Assembly (NCBI GenBank): GCA_031409335.1
Contig: JANNWY010000126.1
Location: 1-21,240, forward strand
From: Chthoniobacteraceae bacterium
GTDB taxonomy: Bacteria; Verrucomicrobiota; Verrucomicrobiia; Chthoniobacterales; Chthoniobacteraceae
Reading direction: 5' to 3'
Length of the DNA stretch: 21,240 bases
A program made the position numbers and the translations under genes. Shown here piece after piece: positions 1 to 13,620 of the stretch; positions within the stretch are counted from its first letter, which is position 1, and each line of letters opens with the position of its first letter. Under the pieces are notes generated by a model that had not been told where the DNA came from, did not search any database, and worked only from the letters and a program-made list of their open reading frames with translations.

Positions 1-1256
1 AGCGGGACGAAGCTTCGACCGTCGATTTCCGTATTGCTCGGTAAGCCGAACAGTTCAATGAGCGTAGGATAAAGGACGATCAAGTTCACCAGGCGGGGAC
101 AATCCTGCCGCGCCGTCATTCCCGGCACACGAATGGTCAACGGTAGGCGGGTGGACTCGGCCCAGAGCGTGGCTTTGCGGAGACGCAGTTTCTCGCCCAG
201 ATGCCAACCGTGATCTCCCCAGATGACGACAATCGTGTTGTCCCGGGCCGGACTTTTCTCCAGTGCATCAAGCACGCGCCCCACGCAATCGTCGGCATGG
301 CTGGAGGCGGCTAGATAGGCCTGCACCGCGCGCTTGAACAAGTTCGTATCCTGCTGCACCCAGTTGAAATCATCGCTGGGCTTGAATTTGGCTTTTCCCT
401 TGGCGTCCACGATATCGCCGAGGTCATCAAGGCGGAACTCCGGCAGCTTGATGCTTTCAAGCGGAAAACGATCGAAATACTCCTGCGGCACATACCAGGG
501 CAGATGCGGTTTGGAAATGCCCAGCGCGAGGAAGAAGGGTTTTGCCGATGGCTTGGCCAGTTGCGCCGCCGCCCATTCAGCCGCCTTCCAGTCTTTGGAT
601 TGTTCTTTTGGTCCCTTGGTTGGACCCCAGGCAAAGTCCACGCCTTCACCATCGCCACTATCATTGCCCGCGCTCTTCGACGGAGGGAACGGCGCGGGCT
701 TGCCGTCAATCAGGTTCCGTTTCCGGGAGGTCGTATGCTCTGGGTCAACTTGCGAACCGCTCCCGCCTTGCTTGGGGAACCATTCATCAAATGCCCAGGC
801 TACTTGGCCGCCGTGGAAAATCTTGCCCGTGGACAACGTCCGGCAGCCGTGCTTGGAAAAATACTCCGGCAGCGTGAAATGCGTCTGCACCAACTTGGCA
901 TCGAGCATATCCTGGCTGTTACCATAAACCCCGGTCCGGTTCGGCATGAAGCCCGACAGCAAAGCTGAGCGTGACGGACAGCAAACCGGCCCCGCGCAAT
1001 TGGCCTGCTGAAAAACCACCGACCCGCCCTGGGCAAACTTGTCCATCCGCGGCGTGGCTGACTGCGCCTGCGGTGCCCCACCAAAGGCCCCGACCCAGTC
1101 ATTCAAGTCATCAATGGCGATGAACAGCACGTTGTATTGTTTGCCCGGCGGTTCGCCGGGAGGTTCGGCAAAAAGATGGGCGGTAAAAAATATGGAGAGA
1201 ACGAGGCCCCATCTTTTACCACACATTTTTTTGCCGGGCATGAAGGTTGGTTTCAT
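1..1256 (-). CDS. Secreted formylglycine-dependent sulfatase (iduronate-2-sulfatase/choline-sulfatase-like), 3' end truncated by window edge
   Basis: Absent from the ORF track because it runs off the edge. Manual translation: MKPTFMPGKKMCGKRWGLVLSIFFTAHLFAEPPGEPPGKQYNVLFIAIDDLNDW...CCPSRSALLSG...GKIFH...KPHLPWYVP...GDHGWHLGEK...KATLW. It has the CxPxR signature and no stop through base 1. In-frame ATGs lie at 1277, 1256, 1241 and 1226, so the start is uncertain. Confidence 0.93.
   Translation of the reverse strand, partial: MKPTFMPGKKMCGKRWGLVLSIFFTAHLFAEPPGEPPGKQYNVLFIAIDDLNDWVGAFGGAPQAQSATPRMDKFAQGGSVVFQQANCAGPVCCPSRSALLSGFMPNRTGVYGNSQDMLDAKLVQTHFTLPEYFSKHGCRTLSTGKIFHGGQVAWAFDEWFPKQGGSGSQVDPEHTTSRKRNLIDGKPAPFPPSKSAGNDSGDGEGVDFAWGPTKGPKEQSKDWKAAEWAAAQLAKPSAKPFFLALGISKPHLPWYVPQEYFDRFPLESIKLPEFRLDDLGDIVDAKGKAKFKPSDDFNWVQQDTNLFKRAVQAYLAASSHADDCVGRVLDALEKSPARDNTIVVIWGDHGWHLGEKLRLRKATLWAESTRLPLTIRVPGMTARQDCPRLVNLIVLYPTLIELFGLPSNTEIDGRSFVP
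1166..1236. repeat. Palindromic element copy A (23-bp arms, 25-nt spacer), in frame in the sulfatase 5' end
   Basis: Left arm 1166-1188 is CGGCAAAAAGATGGGCGGTAAAA and right arm 1214-1236 is TTTTACCACACATTTTTTTGCCG (3 mismatches to a perfect inverted repeat). The left arm is identical to 3710-3732. Confidence 0.95.
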
Positions 1257-1289: not shown

Positions 1290-3770
1290 TCAGCGGTTGA
1301 GGAAGAGTTCACTCGTAACCACGGCTTCAAGGAGTGACCGGAGGCCGTGTTTGTGCTTCGGCATTTCGGCGACGATCTTCTCCACGCTCGCTTCGTCGAG
1401 CGCACCGATGCGGCGACCGCAGGCGTAGGTGAGGAGGCGATCGGTGAGCATGTGGGCGAAGCGTTTCTGGCGCTCGACGAGGATCTTTTTCAGGCCGGAT
1501 ACGTCGGAAAACTTCTCGCCGCTGGGAAGCTCGCCGGCGGCGTCCACTTTGGTTTTACCAACGAGTGTCCGCCAGCCACCGATGGGGTCAAAGTTTTCCA
1601 ACGCGAAGCCGAGCGGATCAATCTTTTGATGGCAGCCGGCGCAGTTCGGCGATTCGCGATGCTTGCTGAGCAGCTCGCGCATGGACTTGGCTCCGCGCAC
1701 ATCGGGATCGATCGCCGGCACGTCATCGGGCGGCGGTGGTGGCGGAGTGCCGAGGATGTTTTCCAGCAGATATACGCCACGCACGACAGGCGAGGTCTCG
1801 ATGCCATTGGCGGTGATTGTGAGCACAGAGCCCATGCCTAGCAGTCCACCGCGCTTGTCGGTCTTGAAGCTGACTTTGCGGAACACATGCGCGTTGGCGG
1901 GATCGCCCAGCTCGCCGAGTTCGTAGTGCGTGGCGAGCGGCTGATTGAGGAGGCTGTAGTCGCAGTCGAGGAAGTTCACGATGCTGGCATCGCGCTCGAT
2001 GAGGTCGCGCATGAAAAGCCGTGTCTCCTGCTTGAAGGCGTGTTCGAGGCCCTTGGAATAGTAGGTTTCAAAGTCCTTCCGGTCCGGCGGCATGCCTCCG
2101 AGGCTGCGGAGGTTCAGCCAACTGTCGAGGAAGCCCGACACGAAGGCATCGGAGCGCGGGCTGGCCAACATGCGGCGCGTCTGGGCGGCGAGCACGTCGG
2201 GCTTGGTGAGTTCCTGGTTTTGTGCGAGCCGGAGCAGTTCCGCATCCGGCATGGAGGACCAGAGGAAATAGGAGAGCCGCGAGGCGAGAGCGTGGCTGTC
2301 GAGCTTGGGTCGGGCCTTCGAGTCCGCTTTCGCGGCGACGGTGTCTTGAGCGAGATAAATAAATGCCGGCGAGCAGAGCGCGGCTTTGAGTGCGTCCTTT
2401 AGACCTTCTTGCGGCGAACGTCCTGTGCTGATGCGTTTCTCCGCCACTGCCACGAGGCGATCCACTTCGTCTTTGGTGGATGGGCGGCGGTAGGCGCGAT
2501 CCGCAAAGGATTGGAGAACGCCGCGCATTCTTTCCGGCCTGAAGGGGGTTTTTCCGATCACGGCCTGCAGGCTCGATGGAGGCCATTGCTCGATGATGGG
2601 TCCGCGAATCTTCACCTCGTGAATTCGGATGTGCGGAATTTTTCCGATCATCACCGCAACATCGCGCGCGTCGCCGATGTCGAGGCGGTCTTTGCCTTTG
2701 TGTCGCCCCTTCGGCCATTTGTCTTTGTGATATTCCGAAATCCGGTGCCAAGATTTGCGGGCATCCTTGGGGCCGTTTGGGAAAACGAATCGAACGGTCT
2801 TCCCGGCATCGAGCCATACTTTCATTTTGTGCCAGACCGGCTCGCCATCGCTCATGGCCTGCTCTGCGAGCAAGGGCTGGAGCGGCTGGGGGAGTTCGAG
2901 CGGACCTGCATTCACGTCCCCGGGCACGACACCGAGCCGGAAAGGCTCGCGGGCGTCGGTGCCAAAAATCTCCGGGTCGTAGGGATGATTCCGGTTCATC
3001 GCGTGAGCGAGCACCTGCACTTCGTAAAAGCCGTCGGCAGGCGCTCCATCCTTGAAGCCGTCGATGAAACCGTAGCCTCCGACGTGCTTCTCCGAGTCCA
3101 TGCACTCGTAAATATTCAGGTGGCGGTTGTCGTATTCCTTTGCCGCCTTCAGGGACTTCTTCGTCGTCTGAAAGTTGTCTTTGAAATGCCACTCGCGCGC
3201 GGCAACCGGCTGCTGGAGTGCGAACACCTTTTCGACAACGGTGTCCGCAGCCTCGAGGTATTGTTCGAGCAAATAGCCGGAGGTTTGAAGCACATCGCCG
3301 AGATTCTCCATGTGTTCTTCGGATTGATCGCGGGGGAACTTCGTCGTGGGATCAAAAGCCGCCATGTTCAGCCCGAAGAGATCCCCGATGGTGTTGATGT
3401 ATTCGAGGCGGTTCAGGCGGCGCAAGACGGTGCTACCACCGGTGCTGGCAAGAGCCTCACGACCATCGGTGAGCGCCAGAGTCGCCTGCTCGATGAAAGC
3501 TCTCTGTTCCGCCGCCGAAGCTTGCTTGGCCTTCTTCGGCGGCATCTCGCCAAGGTGGATTTGATCCAGGATGTCTTTGAGATCGATCAGCGTGTCCAAC
3601 TTGGCGACCGGAAGCGCAAGCCCGTCAAAGCGCCGGTCGCCCTTCTGCTTTTCCGCGCCGTGGCAGTCGTTGCAGTAAGTCGTGAGGAAGCGCTGGATCT
3701 CGGAGGGGCCGGCAAAAAGATGGGCGGTAAAAGATAAGAAAAAAAGGAGTCCCCATTTTTTACCGCACAT
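1290..3770 (-). CDS. DUF1592-family planctomycete-type cytochrome c protein (PSCyt1, DUF1587, DUF1595, DUF1592, DUF1588, DUF1585 architecture)
   Basis: Two CxxCH motifs (YCNDCHG, CAGCHQKIDPLGFALENFD), plus RRLNRLEYINTI, LASRLSYFLWSSMPD and TSPVVRGVYLLENILGTPPPPPP. Start moved from 4073 to ATG 3770 (MCGKKWGLLFFLSFTAHLFA, signal-peptide-like) to avoid overlap with the GxxExxY gene; ~826 aa. Confidence 0.92.
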   Translation of the reverse strand: MCGKKWGLLFFLSFTAHLFAGPSEIQRFLTTYCNDCHGAEKQKGDRRFDGLALPVAKLDTLIDLKDILDQIHLGEMPPKKAKQASAAEQRAFIEQATLALTDGREALASTGGSTVLRRLNRLEYINTIGDLFGLNMAAFDPTTKFPRDQSEEHMENLGDVLQTSGYLLEQYLEAADTVVEKVFALQQPVAAREWHFKDNFQTTKKSLKAAKEYDNRHLNIYECMDSEKHVGGYGFIDGFKDGAPADGFYEVQVLAHAMNRNHPYDPEIFGTDAREPFRLGVVPGDVNAGPLELPQPLQPLLAEQAMSDGEPVWHKMKVWLDAGKTVRFVFPNGPKDARKSWHRISEYHKDKWPKGRHKGKDRLDIGDARDVAVMIGKIPHIRIHEVKIRGPIIEQWPPSSLQAVIGKTPFRPERMRGVLQSFADRAYRRPSTKDEVDRLVAVAEKRISTGRSPQEGLKDALKAALCSPAFIYLAQDTVAAKADSKARPKLDSHALASRLSYFLWSSMPDAELLRLAQNQELTKPDVLAAQTRRMLASPRSDAFVSGFLDSWLNLRSLGGMPPDRKDFETYYSKGLEHAFKQETRLFMRDLIERDASIVNFLDCDYSLLNQPLATHYELGELGDPANAHVFRKVSFKTDKRGGLLGMGSVLTITANGIETSPVVRGVYLLENILGTPPPPPPDDVPAIDPDVRGAKSMRELLSKHRESPNCAGCHQKIDPLGFALENFDPIGGWRTLVGKTKVDAAGELPSGEKFSDVSGLKKILVERQKRFAHMLTDRLLTYACGRRIGALDEASVEKIVAEMPKHKHGLRSLLEAVVTSELFLNR

Positions 3771-3782
3771 CTTTTTGCCGGC
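3708..3782. repeat. Palindromic element copy B (25-bp arms, 25-nt spacer); contains the proposed DUF1592 start codon and signal peptide
   Basis: 3708-3732 is GCCGGCAAAAAGATGGGCGGTAAAA and 3758-3782 is TTTTACCGCACATCTTTTTGCCGGC (1 mismatch). Confidence 0.97.
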
Positions 3783-3789
3783 TAAAAGG

Positions 3790-4575
3790 TCAGCGGATAG
3801 TCGTGAACGTGACATGCTTATGGGTGATGTTGGCCCAGTGAATGACATTGAGTGAAGTGTGCTGAAGGAGGCGGCGAGCATGCACCTCGAAAGCCTCGAT
3901 CCCGTCAGGGAAGACGGTGAGCTTAAAGGCGACATCCGGGGCCAACAAACGCAGCTTTTGCTCGTGAAGTTGTCCTTTGGCTCCCATGACAGGCACCGGC
4001 TGTAGAACCCGCTCTTCGCCACCAAGGAAATGGGTGAGTCCCTCCTCATAAAGCCCCGTCTCAAGGCCAGCACCCCAGTCTTGGATCATGCTGATCAGGT
4101 GGTCATGGAAGATAGATGCCCCAGCAACGGCGGAGTCGAAACTGGAAGTGTCCACGGAAGGATTTCGGAGGGCGTCCAGCCGCAGATGGCAATTCACGAA
4201 CTCATCGCCGACTCGCTCGGGCCGGACGTTGATGATTATTCCGTGCGGCAGATCAAAGAGGAGCAGGTAGTTGATGGTCTGGCCACGATGGCGGGGAACA
4301 ATGCTCTCCGCAGCCTTGAATTCGAAAATGCCTCGTTTGTGCGCCAAGACGTCGAGCTTGGAGAGCTTCGAGAAGGATCCGTGGGAGACGGTCACGGGGA
4401 GTTCCAGCTCCACGCCGGGCATCCTGTCGGCGAGTTCGCGTTTATAGACGGCTTCATCAAAGAAACGGCCGAACTCGTTGTGGATGTCATACACGCACTT
4501 CATCACGTCATAGGCGATCTGGCCGAACTCGGACTGAGTCGGGCGGACCGTTTCGGTGATGCGATGGAATGGCAT
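3790..4575 (-). CDS. GxxExxY family protein (PD-(D/E)XK nuclease-like), double-length with two tandem domains
   Basis: 261 aa. The N-domain has IHNEFGRFFDEAVYKREL, LDVL....IFEFKA (D...ExK) and QTINYL...GIIINV, the usual GxxExxY/PDDEXK_3 pattern. The second half repeats it degenerately (DWGAGLETGLYEEGL). Confidence 0.85.
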   Translation of the reverse strand: MPFHRITETVRPTQSEFGQIAYDVMKCVYDIHNEFGRFFDEAVYKRELADRMPGVELELPVTVSHGSFSKLSKLDVLAHKRGIFEFKAAESIVPRHRGQTINYLLLFDLPHGIIINVRPERVGDEFVNCHLRLDALRNPSVDTSSFDSAVAGASIFHDHLISMIQDWGAGLETGLYEEGLTHFLGGEERVLQPVPVMGAKGQLHEQKLRLLAPDVAFKLTVFPDGIEAFEVHARRLLQHTSLNVIHWANITHKHVTFTTIR

Positions 4576-4587
4576 GGATGGGTTTTA

Positions 4588-4658
4588 GCCGGCAAAAAGA
4601 TGGGCGTTAAAAAATAAATTCAGGGCTTTCAATTTTTACCGCTCTTCTTTTTGCCGGC
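4588..4658. repeat. Palindromic element copy C (26-bp arms), intergenic, non-coding
   Basis: 4588-4613 is GCCGGCAAAAAGATGGGCGTTAAAAA and 4633-4658 is TTTTTACCGCTCTTCTTTTTGCCGGC (3 mismatches). Confidence 0.95.
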
Positions 4659-4670
4659 CTCGTTCACGGT

Positions 4671-5987
4671 TTACGCGAGACCGGTGAGCGTGCCGGTGCT
4701 GGTGCCAAATGTTTTCACCTCCGCGCCGAAGCGATGGAGCATCGACAAATAGAGGTTGCACAACGGCTGACGCCCGAGGCCGCTCGTAGGATACGCCTTG
4801 TGCTCGCCGTGTTTGAAGCCGCCACCAGCAAGGACCAGTGGCAGGTTGCTGTTCGTGTGCGAATTGGCGTTGCCCATGCCGCTGCCGAAAAGGACCATCG
4901 AATGATCGAGCAGCGTGCCCGCGCCGTCCTCGATGGACTTGAGCTTGGCCAAGAAGCGCGCGAACTGCTCCACCTGATAGCGCTCCATCTTGACCAGGGC
5001 TTTGATGGCTTCCTCGCGCATGCCGTGATGCGAAAGCGCATGATAGCTGGACTTCAAATCGAAAGCCGAAGCCTCGAAGTCGCCGCCAATCTCGAACGTG
5101 GCGATGCGGGTGGAATCTGTCTGCAACGCGAGCGCGATGAGGTCATACATCACGGGCAAATCGGAGACAAAATCCTTGTTCTCCGGCTCCGCAATTTTCG
5201 GGTCGGGCTTCGGAACGTGCGCCCATTGGCGGCGCAGCTCGATCTGCTTCTCCACGTCGCGGACAGAGGTGAAATACTCCTCCAGCTTTTCCTTGTCCCG
5301 CTGACCCAGATGGCGCTCTAGCGATTTTGCATCGCCCTGCAACGCGTCGAGAATCGAGCCTTTTAGATCGAGCCGATCCAGCGACGCCCCGATGTCTGCG
5401 GCACCATCGGTAACGAACAGTTTCCGGAACAACTCACGCGGTGTGCTGATCGGCGGCACTCGCGTGCCGCTGCGTGTCCACGACATGAGGCAGCCGCCAT
5501 GGATGCCACTCTCGGATCCCAGGGCGAGCGAGGGAAACCTCGTGGCACCACCCATCGTTTCCGCGGCCCGTTGGTCCACGGTGATGTTGCCCTCGGGCAT
5601 GCCCTTGGCATCGGCGGTGCGCACGCCGCTGAGGAAGGAACTCATCGCAAAGTGCCCGCCCTTCACGCCATGATCGAGGCCGGAGAAGAGCGTGAAGTCT
5701 TTCTGGTGCGGCTTCAGCGCTTCGACGGAAGACGGCAGCACGTAATCCGTCCCCGTTTTCGTCGGGAAAAACGACTGCGGAACGAAACCAAGCAAGTTTC
5801 CGATGCACACCATCCGCTGCGGACGATCAGCGCCCGCCACCTTGCCGGGCAGCGACGCGATGGCAGAGTTTTGCGCGAAGACCCTGCCGCCCAAGGATTC
5901 CAGCAACGGCAACGCAAGGCTCACGCCTGCGGCTCGCAGGAAAACGCGCCGGTTTAGTAATAGAGGAGAAGGATTGGTGTGATTCAT
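4671..5987 (-). CDS. DUF1552 (HXXSHH) domain protein with Tat-like N-terminus
   Basis: NRRVFLRAAGVSLALPLLESL, TRFPSLALG, LALQTDSTRIATF, YHALSHH, TLLDHSMVLFGSGMGNANSH and PLCNLYLSML. Start placed at ATG 5987 (MNHTN) because 6098 overlaps the upstream gene; ~438 aa. Confidence 0.93.
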   Translation of the reverse strand: MNHTNPSPLLLNRRVFLRAAGVSLALPLLESLGGRVFAQNSAIASLPGKVAGADRPQRMVCIGNLLGFVPQSFFPTKTGTDYVLPSSVEALKPHQKDFTLFSGLDHGVKGGHFAMSSFLSGVRTADAKGMPEGNITVDQRAAETMGGATRFPSLALGSESGIHGGCLMSWTRSGTRVPPISTPRELFRKLFVTDGAADIGASLDRLDLKGSILDALQGDAKSLERHLGQRDKEKLEEYFTSVRDVEKQIELRRQWAHVPKPDPKIAEPENKDFVSDLPVMYDLIALALQTDSTRIATFEIGGDFEASAFDLKSSYHALSHHGMREEAIKALVKMERYQVEQFARFLAKLKSIEDGAGTLLDHSMVLFGSGMGNANSHTNSNLPLVLAGGGFKHGEHKAYPTSGLGRQPLCNLYLSMLHRFGAEVKTFGTSTGTLTGLA

Positions 5988-9263: not shown

Positions 9264-11021
9264 CTACGGTTTGGGATTTGCCGCACGCGGGGCGTCGGGT
9301 CTGGGGAGGACGTTCGTGCGTTTCGCCCACGCTTCCCATTTTGCGGACATGTCCTTCACGCGCTCCGGTTGCGAGGCGGCGAGGTCATTCATCTCCACGC
9401 GGTCGGCGTCCATGTCGTATAGCTCCCATAGCGCGGTGCCGGCGGAGACGAGTTTCCATTTACCTTCGCGAATCGCGCGGTTGCCCTCGTGTTCCCAGGC
9501 GAGGAGACGGGGAGGCAGCGAGGCGGAGGAACTGGGAGCCGAAGCCAGTAACGGGCGCAGACTCACGCCTTCCAACGGGAGGACTTTCTTTCCATCCCAC
9601 TCTGCGGGATACTTCGCGCCTGCGATGTCCACACACGTTGCCATGAGGTCAATGAGATGCGCCGGCTCGCGCACGAACCGCCCCTTTGCCGTGTCTTTCC
9701 CAACGGAAGCCGGCCAGTGCGCGATGAGCGGCGTGCCGATGCCGCCTTCGTGGCCGTAATGTTTGTAGAGGCGCCACGGTGTGTTGCACGCGTTTGCCCA
9801 GCCGGAGCCGTAGCTCGGGAACGAACCGGCCTGGCCCATCGTCGCGAGTTCATCGCCGCGGTAGAGTTTGTTCGGGAGCGCCTGCGTGCCCTGGTTGAGG
9901 CCGGTGCCGGGCACGGGATTCGGCGTCGGCAGCATCTCGAATCCGAATGGCTCCCACTCCGCGCATGCGCCGTTGTCGCTGAGGAAAAGGATGAGCGTGT
10001 TGTCGAGTTGTCCGCTGGATCTCAAGTCGGCGAGCAGGCGTCCGATGTTGCGGTCCATGCCCGTGACCATTCCAGCATAGACTGCCATGCGCTGCGCGAG
10101 GTCGGCCCGTCGATCAGCGGGCAGCGAATCCCACGCGGGATTATTCCCGTCATCAGTCCACGAGCCGAGACGCTTGGAAGCGACGGGATGGGTGATCTTG
10201 CTGCGCGGCGTGAGCGCGGTCCCCTCGGGCAGCAGGCCGATTTTCTTCTGCCGCGCGAGGCGTTGCTCGCGGATCTTGTCCCAGCCTTGCGCGTAGATTT
10301 CCGAGTAGCCGGTCATGTCCTCGCGTTTCGACTGCACAGGGAAATGCGGGGCCTGATACCCAATGTAGAGCAGCCACGGCGCGCCCGCTTTTTGCATATC
10401 GGCGAGAAAATCCAGCGCGTGATCGGTGATCGCGTCGGTGGCGAAAAATCCGCCGGGCACGTAGCGGCGCTGCGGGCGGCCCTCGGGCAGGCGCGTCATC
10501 ATGCGCGGTTCCCACGAGTCCACTCCGTAGCCACCGACGAAGCCGTAGAAGTCATCGAAGCCGCGCTTGGTCGGCGGTTCGCTGTCGCCCACGTGCCATT
10601 TACCGGCGGCAGCAGTGCGATAGCCGGCGGGCTTGAGCACCTGCGCGATGGTCAAGCAGTTCGCGTTCAGCGCGCCGCGATAACCGGGGAACGCCTCACC
10701 TTTGTCCCCCGCACCTGGAAACTTCGCGGCCTTATCGGAAGTCATCAGCCCGATGCCCGCTTGATGCGGATAAATCCCTGTGAGTAGCGACGCCCGCGAC
10801 GGACAGCAGCGCGTGGAGGTATAGAACTGCGTGAAGCGCAACCCACCCGTGGCGAGCGAATCGAGATTCGGCGTGCGGATCTCACCGCCAAAGCACCCGA
10901 GGTCCGACCAGCCGAGATCATCAGCGAGGATGATGAGGATGTTTGGCCTGTCAGCCCCGGCGTGCAGCGGGGCCTGCGGCACCAGCAGCAGGGCGATGAT
11001 GAGCGTGACGATGTGTTTCAA
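9264..11021 (-). CDS. Secreted arylsulfatase (AtsA-like formylglycine sulfatase)
   Basis: Signal peptide, RPNILIILADDLGWSD, RCCPSRASLLTG, GKWH, QAPHFP, FLSDNGA and HEGGIGTPLI. The TTG start overlaps the upstream TGA. Confidence 0.96.
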   Translation of the reverse strand: MKHIVTLIIALLLVPQAPLHAGADRPNILIILADDLGWSDLGCFGGEIRTPNLDSLATGGLRFTQFYTSTRCCPSRASLLTGIYPHQAGIGLMTSDKAAKFPGAGDKGEAFPGYRGALNANCLTIAQVLKPAGYRTAAAGKWHVGDSEPPTKRGFDDFYGFVGGYGVDSWEPRMMTRLPEGRPQRRYVPGGFFATDAITDHALDFLADMQKAGAPWLLYIGYQAPHFPVQSKREDMTGYSEIYAQGWDKIREQRLARQKKIGLLPEGTALTPRSKITHPVASKRLGSWTDDGNNPAWDSLPADRRADLAQRMAVYAGMVTGMDRNIGRLLADLRSSGQLDNTLILFLSDNGACAEWEPFGFEMLPTPNPVPGTGLNQGTQALPNKLYRGDELATMGQAGSFPSYGSGWANACNTPWRLYKHYGHEGGIGTPLIAHWPASVGKDTAKGRFVREPAHLIDLMATCVDIAGAKYPAEWDGKKVLPLEGVSLRPLLASAPSSSASLPPRLLAWEHEGNRAIREGKWKLVSAGTALWELYDMDADRVEMNDLAASQPERVKDMSAKWEAWAKRTNVLPRPDAPRAANPKP

Positions 11022-12514
11022 TGCTTTGCCTTCTGGTTCTTCCTTTTCTCCGCCGTGGCTTCGTCGGTCCGGCTTTGCGGGGAAAGGTAATGATCGAACA
11101 CCTCACCCTGGCCGAGGGCGCGTGGGTCGTTCTGTTTCTTGAGTTCGTCCATGAGCGTCCCATGCAGGGTGGCGAGTTTTTCCGCGAAGGAGGGATTGGT
11201 GGCGAGGTTCACGACGCAGTCGGGATCTTTACTGAGGTCGAACAATTGCTCGGCCGGACGTTTGCCGAAGGCGTGCTGCCAGAAAGGATCTTGCTCGCCG
11301 CTTTCCGTCGCGAGAGTTTTGCTCGGACTGGCGTCGGTGTCCTTCGTGCCCAGTTCGGGATTGCCGCACGGCCAGCGGTCCGGGGCGAAGTTGTGGACGT
11401 AAAATAAATCACCCCTGCGAATCGCGCGCGCCGGATAGCCGAGACCCGCCGGCGAGCCCGGACGCGCCAGCACGTCGTTGCGCTCCCGCCCGACGATAAC
11501 CATATCGCGTTCGGCTTTCGCTTCGTTGCGGAGCAAATCGGTGAAGCTCCGACCGGTGATGGGCGACATGCCCTGCGCGGCGCCATTCACGCCGAACAGT
11601 TCGAGGAACGTCGGCGCGAGGTCTATGAAGCTGATGAAGTCCGCGACGCGGCGGCCCGGTTTCGTGATTCCCGCAGGCCATGCGGCGACGAACGGAATAT
11701 GATGCGCGTCGTCGTAGGTGTGACCCTTCACGCGAGGAAACGGCATGCCATGATCCGAGGTGACGATGACCAAGGTGTTCTTCGCCTCGCCGCTTGCTGC
11801 TAGCGCCGCGAGTAGCGAGCCGACCTGCGCGTCATAGGCTTCCACCTCCATCGCATAGTCAAGCATGTCGCCGCGGATGAGATCATTGTCGGGCCAGTAG
11901 GCGGGCACGCGTTCGATGTCGGAGGGTTTCTTGCCGGCGGCGATGCCGGAGCCGGGCTTGTAAGAGCGATGTGGGTTTTTACTGCCAAACCAATAGAGAA
12001 AAGGCGTGCCCGCCGCGCGCTTGTTAAGAAACGCAGTGAGGCCGGCACCGGGATCGCTCGCGTCTTTGCCACCGCCGCCGAGGGCGAAGTCGCGCGGGCT
12101 GCCATCAGCCAGTTTCGCTTCGCCCGGACCCCAGGTCTTGCCCGCAGCGCCGGTTCGGATGCCGGCCTTCGCGAGCGCTTCGCTGAAGGCCATGAACTTC
12201 GCAGGAAAATACGGCTGATGATTCGCGGCGTCCTCGATCTGCCACGGATTGCGGCCAGTGAGAATGGACGCCCTCGACGGCGCGCATTTCGACGTCGGAG
12301 TGTAGGCGTTTTCAAAGACCAGACCATGCTTTGCGAGGCGGTCAATGTTCGGCGTCTTTGCCCAGTTGCAGCCATAGGCTTCGCCAAAATGACGCGACGC
12401 ATCGTCGGCGATGATGAAAAGGACATTGGGCCGGACCGCCGCCGCATCCACCGCCCGCGCGGCGAAATACGGAGCCAGCAGCAGGGCAACGATAAGTGTG
12501 ATTGTATGTTTCAT
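11018..12514 (-). CDS. Secreted sulfatase (N-sulfoglucosamine sulfohydrolase/sulfamidase-like)
   Basis: RPNVLFIIADD, KCAPSRASILTG, NPHRSY, TSDHGMPFPRVKG, GRERND and GYPARAIR. Start placed at ATG 12514 (MKHTITL), with an ATGA overlap with the lactonase stop; ~498 aa. Confidence 0.94.
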   Translation of the reverse strand: MKHTITLIVALLLAPYFAARAVDAAAVRPNVLFIIADDASRHFGEAYGCNWAKTPNIDRLAKHGLVFENAYTPTSKCAPSRASILTGRNPWQIEDAANHQPYFPAKFMAFSEALAKAGIRTGAAGKTWGPGEAKLADGSPRDFALGGGGKDASDPGAGLTAFLNKRAAGTPFLYWFGSKNPHRSYKPGSGIAAGKKPSDIERVPAYWPDNDLIRGDMLDYAMEVEAYDAQVGSLLAALAASGEAKNTLVIVTSDHGMPFPRVKGHTYDDAHHIPFVAAWPAGITKPGRRVADFISFIDLAPTFLELFGVNGAAQGMSPITGRSFTDLLRNEAKAERDMVIVGRERNDVLARPGSPAGLGYPARAIRRGDLFYVHNFAPDRWPCGNPELGTKDTDASPSKTLATESGEQDPFWQHAFGKRPAEQLFDLSKDPDCVVNLATNPSFAEKLATLHGTLMDELKKQNDPRALGQGEVFDHYLSPQSRTDEATAEKRKNQKAKH

Positions 12515-13620
12515 GGTGGGAGAAGATGCCGGTCGAACTTTACGCCCAGCACCCAGGCGGGATTTTTGCCGCAGTCGTAAGTCTGCAGCGGAGTGAGCGC
12601 CCCGGTGGTGGTGTCGCGACGGTAGACGATCAGCCGGTTCGCGCCCTGGCCGGCGGATACGACGAACTTTTCGCCGCCGGGCATCAGGCAAAAGGAGCGT
12701 GGCGTTTTTTCCGTCGGCGTCTGGCCGAGCGACTTCAGTTCACCCGAGTCGGGATGAATCGAGAAGACGGCGAGGCTGTCGTGCCCGCGGTTCGACGCGT
12801 AGGCGAAGCGCCCGTCCGCGCTGACCTGAATGTCCGCGCTCGAGCCCTTCAATTTGTCCCAATTGTCCGGCGTCGTCGAGAGCGTCTGACGGATCTTCAA
12901 AGTGCCCGCTGTTTGATCATAGTCGCACAACGTCACGCTCTGGCCTTGCTCATTGACGAGATACACCCAGCGCCCGTTCGGGTGGAATTGCATGTGCCGT
13001 GGCCCCTGCCCGGGGCCGCCCCCCATCGACGGCGGCGTGTGCGGAGCGAGCGAGCCCGCGACCGGATCGAAGCGGAGCTGCTCGACTTTGTTCATCTCGC
13101 CCACGTGCGGGACAAAGGCGAAGCGATTGGCTGCATCAAGCTTCAAGGAGTGCGCCTTACTGCCCGTTGCCAGTGTCTGGACTGGCGCTCCTGTGATCAC
13201 GCCGTCCGTGATTCGGCTAAGCGTTACGACGCCTTCGCTGTAGGAAGCGGCGAGCAGCCAGCGGCCCGTCTTGTCCACCTGCACGAACGCAGCGTTCATG
13301 CCCGCAGGGCTAAAGACCGGATTGGCCAGCAAGCCGGTGGCGCGATCGATGGCGAGCGTCGCAAACTGCTTACCCGAGCGCACCGCAGCATAGAGGTGCG
13401 TACGATCCGCACCGATCGCCAGGCTACCCGGCGAGCCCGGCAAATCCACCGCGCCCGCACGGGTCAGTTCGCCGGTCTTTTCGTCCATCGAATAGACCGC
13501 GATGCGTTTCTCCCCGCTCTCGGAAACGTAAAGCACCGTCGGTGATGCATCAGCTGCGTGCAGAATTGCGGCCGCCGCAGGGAGCAGAATACCGGCGAAA
13601 AGTGCGAGGGTGTGTTTCAT
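12511..13620 (-). CDS. Lactonase, 7-bladed beta-propeller (Pgl/YbhE family), with signal peptide
   Basis: Motifs KAHS, GPRHMQFHPNGRWVYLVNE, ADIQVSADGRFAYASNRGHDS and TPRSF; hydrophobic N-terminus. Confidence 0.93.
   Translation of the reverse strand: MKHTLALFAGILLPAAAAILHAADASPTVLYVSESGEKRIAVYSMDEKTGELTRAGAVDLPGSPGSLAIGADRTHLYAAVRSGKQFATLAIDRATGLLANPVFSPAGMNAAFVQVDKTGRWLLAASYSEGVVTLSRITDGVITGAPVQTLATGSKAHSLKLDAANRFAFVPHVGEMNKVEQLRFDPVAGSLAPHTPPSMGGGPGQGPRHMQFHPNGRWVYLVNEQGQSVTLCDYDQTAGTLKIRQTLSTTPDNWDKLKGSSADIQVSADGRFAYASNRGHDSLAVFSIHPDSGELKSLGQTPTEKTPRSFCLMPGGEKFVVSAGQGANRLIVYRRDTTTGALTPLQTYDCGKNPAWVLGVKFDRHLLPP

Follow-up and report, generated by a model that had tools for sequence, protein, structure and literature searches.

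We report on a stretch of 21,240 nucleotides (hereafter the window; contig JANNWY010000126.1 of the Chthoniobacteraceae bacterium assembly GCA_031409335.1) in which a gene for a GxxExxY / PDDEXK_3 nuclease-like protein is enclosed by two hairpins, and on the relatives of this cassette in other genomes. The nuclease gene (3790..4575, minus strand) encodes a two-domain protein of 261 aa and is situated between two host genes on the same strand: upstream a DUF1552 (HXXSHH) gene (4671..5984, start inferred) and downstream a gene (1290..3770) for a DUF1587/1595/1592/1588/1585 protein, below referred to as DUF1592, whose N-terminal domain is a CxxCH cytochrome c. The upstream hairpin (4588..4658, assigned to neither strand) is non-coding and is found 13 nt past the DUF1552 stop. 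The downstream hairpin (3708..3782, minus strand) is coding, and provides the DUF1592 protein with its ATG (3770-3768) and with a predicted Sec signal peptide of 20 residues (3770-3711); next to it, the final codons of the nuclease gene and a linker (3783..3815, minus strand) hold a second in-frame DUF1592 ATG at 3815-3813. A solo hairpin of the same family (1164..1238, minus strand) lies 2544 nt from the cassette, where a sulfatase (PF00884, E 3e-41) has it in frame as its predicted signal peptide; the sulfatase gene (1..1256, minus strand) is truncated by the contig end and holds the hairpin at its N-terminus.

The gene-facing arms of the two cassette hairpins (3755-3787 and 4583-4615; 33 nt, 94% complementary) are located 2 nt from the nuclease stop and 7 nt from its ATG, respectively. 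An initial annotation of the window had described the gene, its hairpins, this inverted pair with its spacings, the position of the unit between DUF1552 and DUF1592 and a solo hairpin some 2.5 kb away, and our coordinates agree with it throughout; what it overlooked is that the downstream and solo hairpins are protein-coding. The TAAAA extension that it noted on the gene-facing arms is present at those coordinates, but it is not conserved among relatives, and the 33-bp pair therefore represents two of four copies of one arm, with no dedicated terminal repeat. Specifically, the upstream hairpin is built from two arms separated by a variable spacer, each arm having two tandem words of ~13 nt and an A-tract, and it contains stop codons in the frame that the downstream copy keeps open. 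The outer arms of the cassette hairpins are inverted copies, and the number and orientation of arms differ from locus to locus. As DNA folds, the three window hairpins have z-scores of -8.7, -5.8 and -4.3, and none of 200 shuffles was equally stable in any of the three cases.

A Pfam and NCBIfam scan of the 261-aa protein gave PDDEXK_3 / GxxExxY as the sole match, covering residues 19-120 (PF13366, 55.9 bits with a cut-off of 22; TIGR04256, 54.9 bits with a cut-off of 35). The N-terminal domain carries E58, D75, E85-x-K87 and Q99-x3-Y103, where a QxxxY following ExK is what we take to mark RecB/Cas4-like nucleases that act on single-stranded DNA (ssDNA). D75, E85 and K87 are present in all 95 full-length relatives, E58 and Y103 each in 94/95 and Q99 in 93/95. 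The nuclease gene is under purifying selection, with ratios of non-synonymous to synonymous substitutions (dN/dS) of 0.09-0.16 in eight pairwise comparisons, and selection acts on both halves. In the predicted structure (predicted local distance difference test, pLDDT, 91) the order of helices and strands occurs twice; the C-terminal half has a GxxExxY-like motif and lacks D-ExK, and this domain is likely, on the basis of the model, a degenerate duplicate without catalytic residues. BLASTP between the two halves found nothing in favour of a domain duplication, and the C-terminal domain modelled alone has a pLDDT of 45. The top structural matches of the protein are PD-(D/E)XK enzymes, the best being Cas4 SSO0001 (4ic1), which matches the N-terminal domain only (Foldseek E 1.7e-4; Z 7.4, rmsd 3.4 over 97 residues, about a third of the protein, a Z below 8 being middling). 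No HUH or GIY-YIG entry was among the structural matches listed, which does not exclude such folds, and the search by sequence found no relative of solved structure; look-alikes in the Atlas were all PDDEXK_3 clusters, a lead only.

To compare loci we gathered 80 from species genomes, 19 from metagenomes and six from kin searches; of these 105 loci with a match, 95 were full length and used, and ten partial ones were left out. A hairpin, defined as a score of at least 12 within 140 nt of the gene, was detected upstream at 56/94 loci, downstream at 57/95, on either side at 71/94 and on both sides at 42/94, compared with 7/450 control windows. This linkage persists from 100% down to 32% protein identity. 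In the usual layout each flank has two words in forward and two in reverse orientation, each arm again consisting of two tandem words of ~13 nt with an A-tract, and a shared 11-mer scoring at least 8 was present at 89/95 loci vs 0/69 control pairs. The word is lineage-specific and both ends of the cassette switch together: among 80 non-redundant loci the mean similarity of upstream and downstream flanks was 27.6 within a locus vs 13.0 between loci, and across different sites flank similarity grows with protein identity (Spearman rho 0.41, exceeded in 0/500 permutations; kin are not independent). Moreover, across seven sites the likeness of the non-coding upstream arms is 86% and that of their spacer cores 48%, which indicates that the word itself is constrained; synonymous sites differ by 37-62%. 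An inspection by eye for residues co-varying with the word gave nothing clear.

The host genome (G000) encodes three GxxExxY types, each with its own repeat, having 13, 4 and 32 matches. A two-domain paralogue on contig C30 (L002:1338-2329), 34% identical, has its own, different hairpins on both sides, with four arms and no solos in the genome, and on C155 (L001:1384-1925) a single-domain GxxExxY gene forms part of the loop enclosed by inverted 9-mer arrays, to which the genome has 32 related matches. That the hairpins would be MITE-like (miniature inverted-repeat transposable elements), moved in trans by another transposase with the GxxExxY gene as a captured passenger, is in keeping with a layout like that of a composite element and with solos in genomes where no close nuclease was found. 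We nevertheless consider it very unlikely, given that the word at both ends changes in step with the nuclease lineage, that linkage is kept over the whole range of protein identity, and that there is neither a target duplication nor a conserved terminus.

The cassette occurs at many unrelated sites in freshwater bacteria. Clustering by neighbouring genes gave at most 52 sites for the 95 loci, with each locus that lacks a usable neighbour taken as a site of its own, and grouped those 25 that have ≥76% identity into nine clusters. In the host genome a second, 89%-identical copy is present at an unrelated site on contig C246, and family members reach up to eight per genome. The distribution is patchy: among the host's kin a match was found in 4/61 genomes, with no close one outside G000, and relatives are present in records labelled Planctomycetota, Acidobacteria and Abditibacteriaceae (bin labels are possibly wrong), and a copy with 84% identity is in one labelled Pirellulaceae.

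A search for DUF1592 orthologues in 145 genomes of a related family provided native, filled and scarred alleles of one site. Among the 19 closest orthologues (70-75% identity), nine have a plain DUF1552-DUF1592 junction, three the cassette, six scars and one another hairpin. In one contig, from a run of the same study, position 3697 is joined to 4669, the letters between not being seen; other read-derived joints, whose sides are short, were disregarded. In filled alleles the right junction is of at least two kinds and the left one of several, with the native spacer and signal peptide gone, and the comparison of filled and empty junctions shows a replacement with several different ends. In the host-gene tree filled and empty alleles are intermixed (this tree and that of the DUF1501-DUF1549 site are quick trees). 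At the DUF1501-DUF1549 site, where the group was set by neighbours before the tree was made, the nucleases do not form one clade (p-AU 0.00135), and L012 keeps an L027-type upstream hairpin before a different gene and a different downstream hairpin. Different nuclease lineages hence occupy one site, and the cassette is mobile on an evolutionary scale. No empty site was obtained for the sulfatase solo, for which a search of the 145 genomes at E≤1e-150 found no orthologue. In L143-L146, L148 and L153 the stretch between the DUF1552 stop and the scar has a different 9-mer tandem repeat in place of the upstream hairpin and the nuclease gene, which suggests that a second element overwrote the cassette there.

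Read from the ATG at 3770, the downstream hairpin gives MCGKKWGLLFFLSFTAHLFA and, staying in the 806-codon DUF1592 frame, runs directly on to the mature domain of DUF1592. The A-rich arm encodes the basic end of the peptide and the T-rich arm the hydrophobic end, and the 20 residues fit the expected anatomy of a signal peptide, i.e. a basic n-region, a hydrophobic core and a small residue at -1, ahead of the mature domain. Heme attachment to a CxxCH cytochrome requires export, and in the window there is no alternative candidate signal for the DUF1592 protein. In cassette-less orthologues an unrelated native signal peptide occupies the same position. As judged from sequence, DUF1592 takes its start and its predicted signal peptide from the downstream hairpin, and the native signal has been replaced.

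This use of the hairpin recurs. The same 69-nt hairpin opens eight different genes, the window solo included: two DUF1592 paralogues and genes for a DUF1549 protein, a 3-keto-disaccharide hydrolase and the sulfatase, the C27 gene at 7577, and two without a Pfam match. All three solos of the host genome are in frame, as are the downstream hairpins of both cassettes; the two upstream hairpins do not open a gene in this manner. Among loci matching the window arm (23 downstream and 24 upstream hairpins), the 69-nt length was seen in 17/23 downstream vs 2/24 upstream hairpins (7/13 vs 2/11 with one locus per site) and an in-frame stop in 5/23 vs 20/24, and the downstream hairpins start mostly 10 nt past the nuclease stop. 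There are intermediates, in that the L037 group has a hairpin fused to a retained native core and L048 and L128 have a hairpin before an intact native start, and there are scars in which the T-rich arm is retained after loss of the nuclease. Cassette-less scar alleles likely start from the overlap ATG in the final codons of the nuclease gene. Nuclease remnants scored well above shuffles in L144, L146, L153 and C27:7577 and weakly in L143; scars L145 and L148 were left out of this scoring.

Three 44-nt window copies (10977-11020, 12470-12513 and 13576-13619), 61-77% alike, are present at the starts of consecutive minus-strand genes and are probably similar signal-peptide starts. At the junction before DUF1592 paralogues of 55-60% identity (L161-L165, L167 and L170), other short-word repeat families likewise form a predicted signal peptide's hydrophobic part, and L164 and L167 have a small inserted gene whose product resembles a four-helix-bundle protein.

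Stable hairpins at gene boundaries within operons could also act at the RNA or regulatory level, as processing sites, attenuators or operators for the protein, with the cassette moving by host recombination only. Head-to-head word pairs could form operator arrays, and the host gene is recombinogenic. Such a role leaves unexplained the dispersal to dozens of unrelated sites, the invariant catalytic residues and the three word families that are each tied to their own nuclease in one genome; furthermore, no terminator-like or sigma-70-like promoter coincides with the hairpins. We regard this explanation as unlikely.

In the 7.9-Mb draft host genome we identified 13 arms at ≤5 mismatches, eight of them in the two cassettes and five in the three solos, and none with the reversed control. 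The arm search of 145 genomes gave a match in 44, with a maximum of 20 arms, where draft assemblies may lead to an undercount. A full-length relative at ≥84% identity is present in four genomes, and every one of them has 8-20 arms (cassette arms counted), compared with three of the other 141 having at least eight, and one of these three has a 58% relative with similar arms. Most solos examined lack a nuclease remnant, and the remnant score of the window solo at the sulfatase gene was not above shuffle level; hairpins therefore probably also spread alone, often in local clusters, and some solos are scars of lost cassettes. Specifically, six hairpin sites are found in about 17 kb of G062, and L172 (G128 C63, ~14 kb) has eight clustered arms on one strand, with no partner arm at threshold and no close nuclease on the stretch.

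Some loci show rearranged hairpins. Tandem duplications with units of ~170-280 nt centred on the hairpin are present at L014:1801-2206, L096:4406-4643, L044:3578-5218 and L124:1501-1843, and some take in the 3' end of the nuclease gene and the start of the following gene; they may have arisen by the repair of breaks at the hairpin, or be artefacts of assembly. Tail-to-tail arm pairs with little or no spacer (L110:1501-1570, L130:1479-1522 and L134:1501-1544) resemble what a deletion of the gene from between its facing arms would leave, and in L110 a native signal peptide is retained downstream of the pair.

The numbers of gene-less hairpins bear on the possibility of a RAYT-like domestication, where a mostly stationary nuclease is kept for host benefit and spreads gene-less hairpins only. 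The lack of nuclease remnants in most solos, their local clustering, the high arm counts in the genomes with close relatives and a dN/dS of about 0.1 would all agree with this. A stationary gene is difficult to reconcile with two 89%-identical copies at unrelated sites of one genome, up to eight family members per genome, empty alleles, the near absence of the gene from the host's kin, the Pirellulaceae-labelled copy and low repeat numbers. The occurrence at multiple sites has already weakened this explanation, and we find it improbable.

The cassette combines a gene linked to its hairpins, lineage-specific words, the occupation of many sites and the in-frame replacement of a host N-terminus. 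We favour, as the rather probable explanation, a selfish cassette that is spread by the action of the nuclease on its own word together with host repair, and whose downstream hairpin is a predicted signal peptide replacing that of the neighbour. The ~11-13-nt word would be read by the protein, probably in single-stranded or extruded DNA, in the way that Ssn and RAYT enzymes read their own words, and the predicted PD-(D/E)XK nuclease would bind the word and nick at or near the hairpin, after which host recombination-repair might copy either the hairpin alone or the gene with the downstream hairpin. Since the geometry is fixed downstream and variable upstream, and in view of the chimera at L012, the moving unit is probably the gene together with its downstream hairpin, landing by an existing hairpin that turns into the upstream one. 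Landing at the start of a gene for an exported protein would be tolerated where the hairpin reads in frame, because the hairpin supplies the signal peptide. Once the native signal is lost the host gene would depend on the hairpin, which would be kept when the nuclease is lost. Going further, GxxExxY proteins may be the enzymes of an undescribed class of mobile elements, in which a PD-(D/E)XK nuclease would read the short tandem words of its own hairpins and move with no transposase, and the two-domain lineage may have evolved an outward-reading signal-peptide right end that enables harmless invasion at the starts of genes for secreted proteins and renders the host gene dependent on the DNA of the element; we put this forward tentatively, as somewhat less probable than its negation.

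Several observations weigh against the favoured explanation. Hairpins were below threshold on both sides at 23/94 loci, the own downstream flank was the top match at only 36/80 loci, and no close nuclease was detected in G121 and G142, the other two genomes with at least eight arms (9 and 12). The sequence support for a domain duplication is weak, since hhalign of the two halves placed the motifs in register with a probability of 0.3%. Signal-peptide identity is judged by anatomy and position, and all of the mechanism is what we infer. The comparison of filled and empty alleles revealed no target duplication or fixed junction, in agreement with the initial annotation, and hence does not pin down the moving unit. 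Finally, the DUF1592 host gene is mosaic among relatives, so the intermixed filled and empty alleles could have arisen by ordinary homologous recombination and their mixing alone does not show homing; short divergent tracts adjoin L099, and with a host gene that is mosaic throughout co-conversion tracts are uninformative.

The initial annotation had proposed a selfish or domesticated, RAYT/REPIN-like unit. That nuclease and palindromes form a selfish unit is well supported, since a genome-wide count associates the repeat with GxxExxY genes, the homologues have palindromes of their own with words that co-vary with the protein, and the alignment of empty sites shows that the gene lacks stable synteny. 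A RAYT/REPIN label is less fitting for a cassette that moves, is multi-copy and patchy and has at most 20 arms.

New here are an enzyme fold unreported for systems that pair a nuclease with its own palindromes, and a reusable signal-peptide end. The fold would be the third, after HUH and GIY-YIG, paired in this manner. PF13366 is a widespread family whose function is listed as unknown, and as each homologue adjoins its likely substrate its function is directly testable; dozens of natural enzyme-word pairs are open to specificity swaps, as for Ssn. The locus also offers a clear case of a mobile element that donates an export signal and leaves it behind, with native, invaded and scarred states at one site, and it affects the start-codon annotation of many secreted proteins of the Planctomycetes-Verrucomicrobia-Chlamydiae (PVC) group.

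With respect to known systems, the protein belongs to the PDDEXK_3 / GxxExxY family by both hidden Markov models, as a two-domain subfamily of 261 aa. Our literature search, with subscription journals and supplements outside its coverage, found nothing linking this family to flanking repeats, and for PF13366 an unknown function and multiple transfers are noted (PMC3424549). Other candidates were rejected: phage carriage, with no relative in viral contigs; plasmid carriage, with one partial 33% match in 72,556 plasmids; a defence system, with no PADLOC match; and a known RNA family, with sub-threshold miRNA-hairpin matches only.

Cas4 resembles the cassette protein in the fold of the N-terminal domain and presumably in the QxxxY after ExK. 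In Cas4 four conserved cysteines hold an iron-sulphur cluster, a set which the cassette protein lacks (one invariant Cys, C129, across 27 aligned proteins), and no cas genes were found among the 22 neighbours scanned. Homing endonuclease genes cut and convert the empty allele of one fixed site; the cassette likewise has filled and empty alleles of one site, and it occupies many sites. Insertion sequences and MITEs differ in their target-site duplication. Rickettsia palindromic elements (RPE) are repeats translated in frame (PMC10969869) and RU-2 is part of the YPO1552 signal peptide (PMC2759123); the cassette hairpin is likewise translated in frame within a host protein, but it provides a whole predicted signal peptide at eight genes, is attached to a cognate enzyme gene, and has native, filled and scarred alleles of one site.

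REPIN-RAYT, REPtron and TIRtron systems share with the cassette an enzyme gene bounded by doublet palindromes with a variable spacer, together with dispersed gene-less copies, and inverted doublets of this kind are present both beside the nuclease gene and as solos. RAYTs are described as vertically inherited genes that are present once, do not jump and are accompanied by hundreds of REPINs (10.1101/2021.07.10.451892; PMC3733652). They are HUH/Y1 transposases and have a GTAG / CGTC tag at the hairpin foot, which by inspection is absent from both cassette hairpins; the cassette protein is a PDDEXK_3 member, and the cassette is multi-copy, patchy and cross-phylum, changes site and has ≤20 arms per genome searched. 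With no HUH fold found, two copies at different sites and 13 arms in the host genome, we rejected membership of REPIN-RAYT.

A close likeness in layout is with Ssn/NTS, where a small nuclease gene (SsnA, GIY-YIG cd10448) has its own flanking hairpins, homologue-specific repeats and dispersed solos, 71% of the homologues having repeats nearby and 42% having them on both sides (PMC11893778), compared with 71/94 and 42/94 for the cassette by a different test. The cassette is not a member of Ssn/NTS, since the 261-aa protein has no GIY-YIG nuclease domain and is instead a two-domain PD-(D/E)XK protein with a Cas4/RecB-like fold; and where Ssn/NTS repeats number in the hundreds, those of the cassette number in the tens, have arms of tandem words and are used to encode a signal peptide. 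The cassette most likely has a mode resembling that of Ssn/NTS or a TIRtron, in which the enzyme would nick its own words and host repair would copy them.

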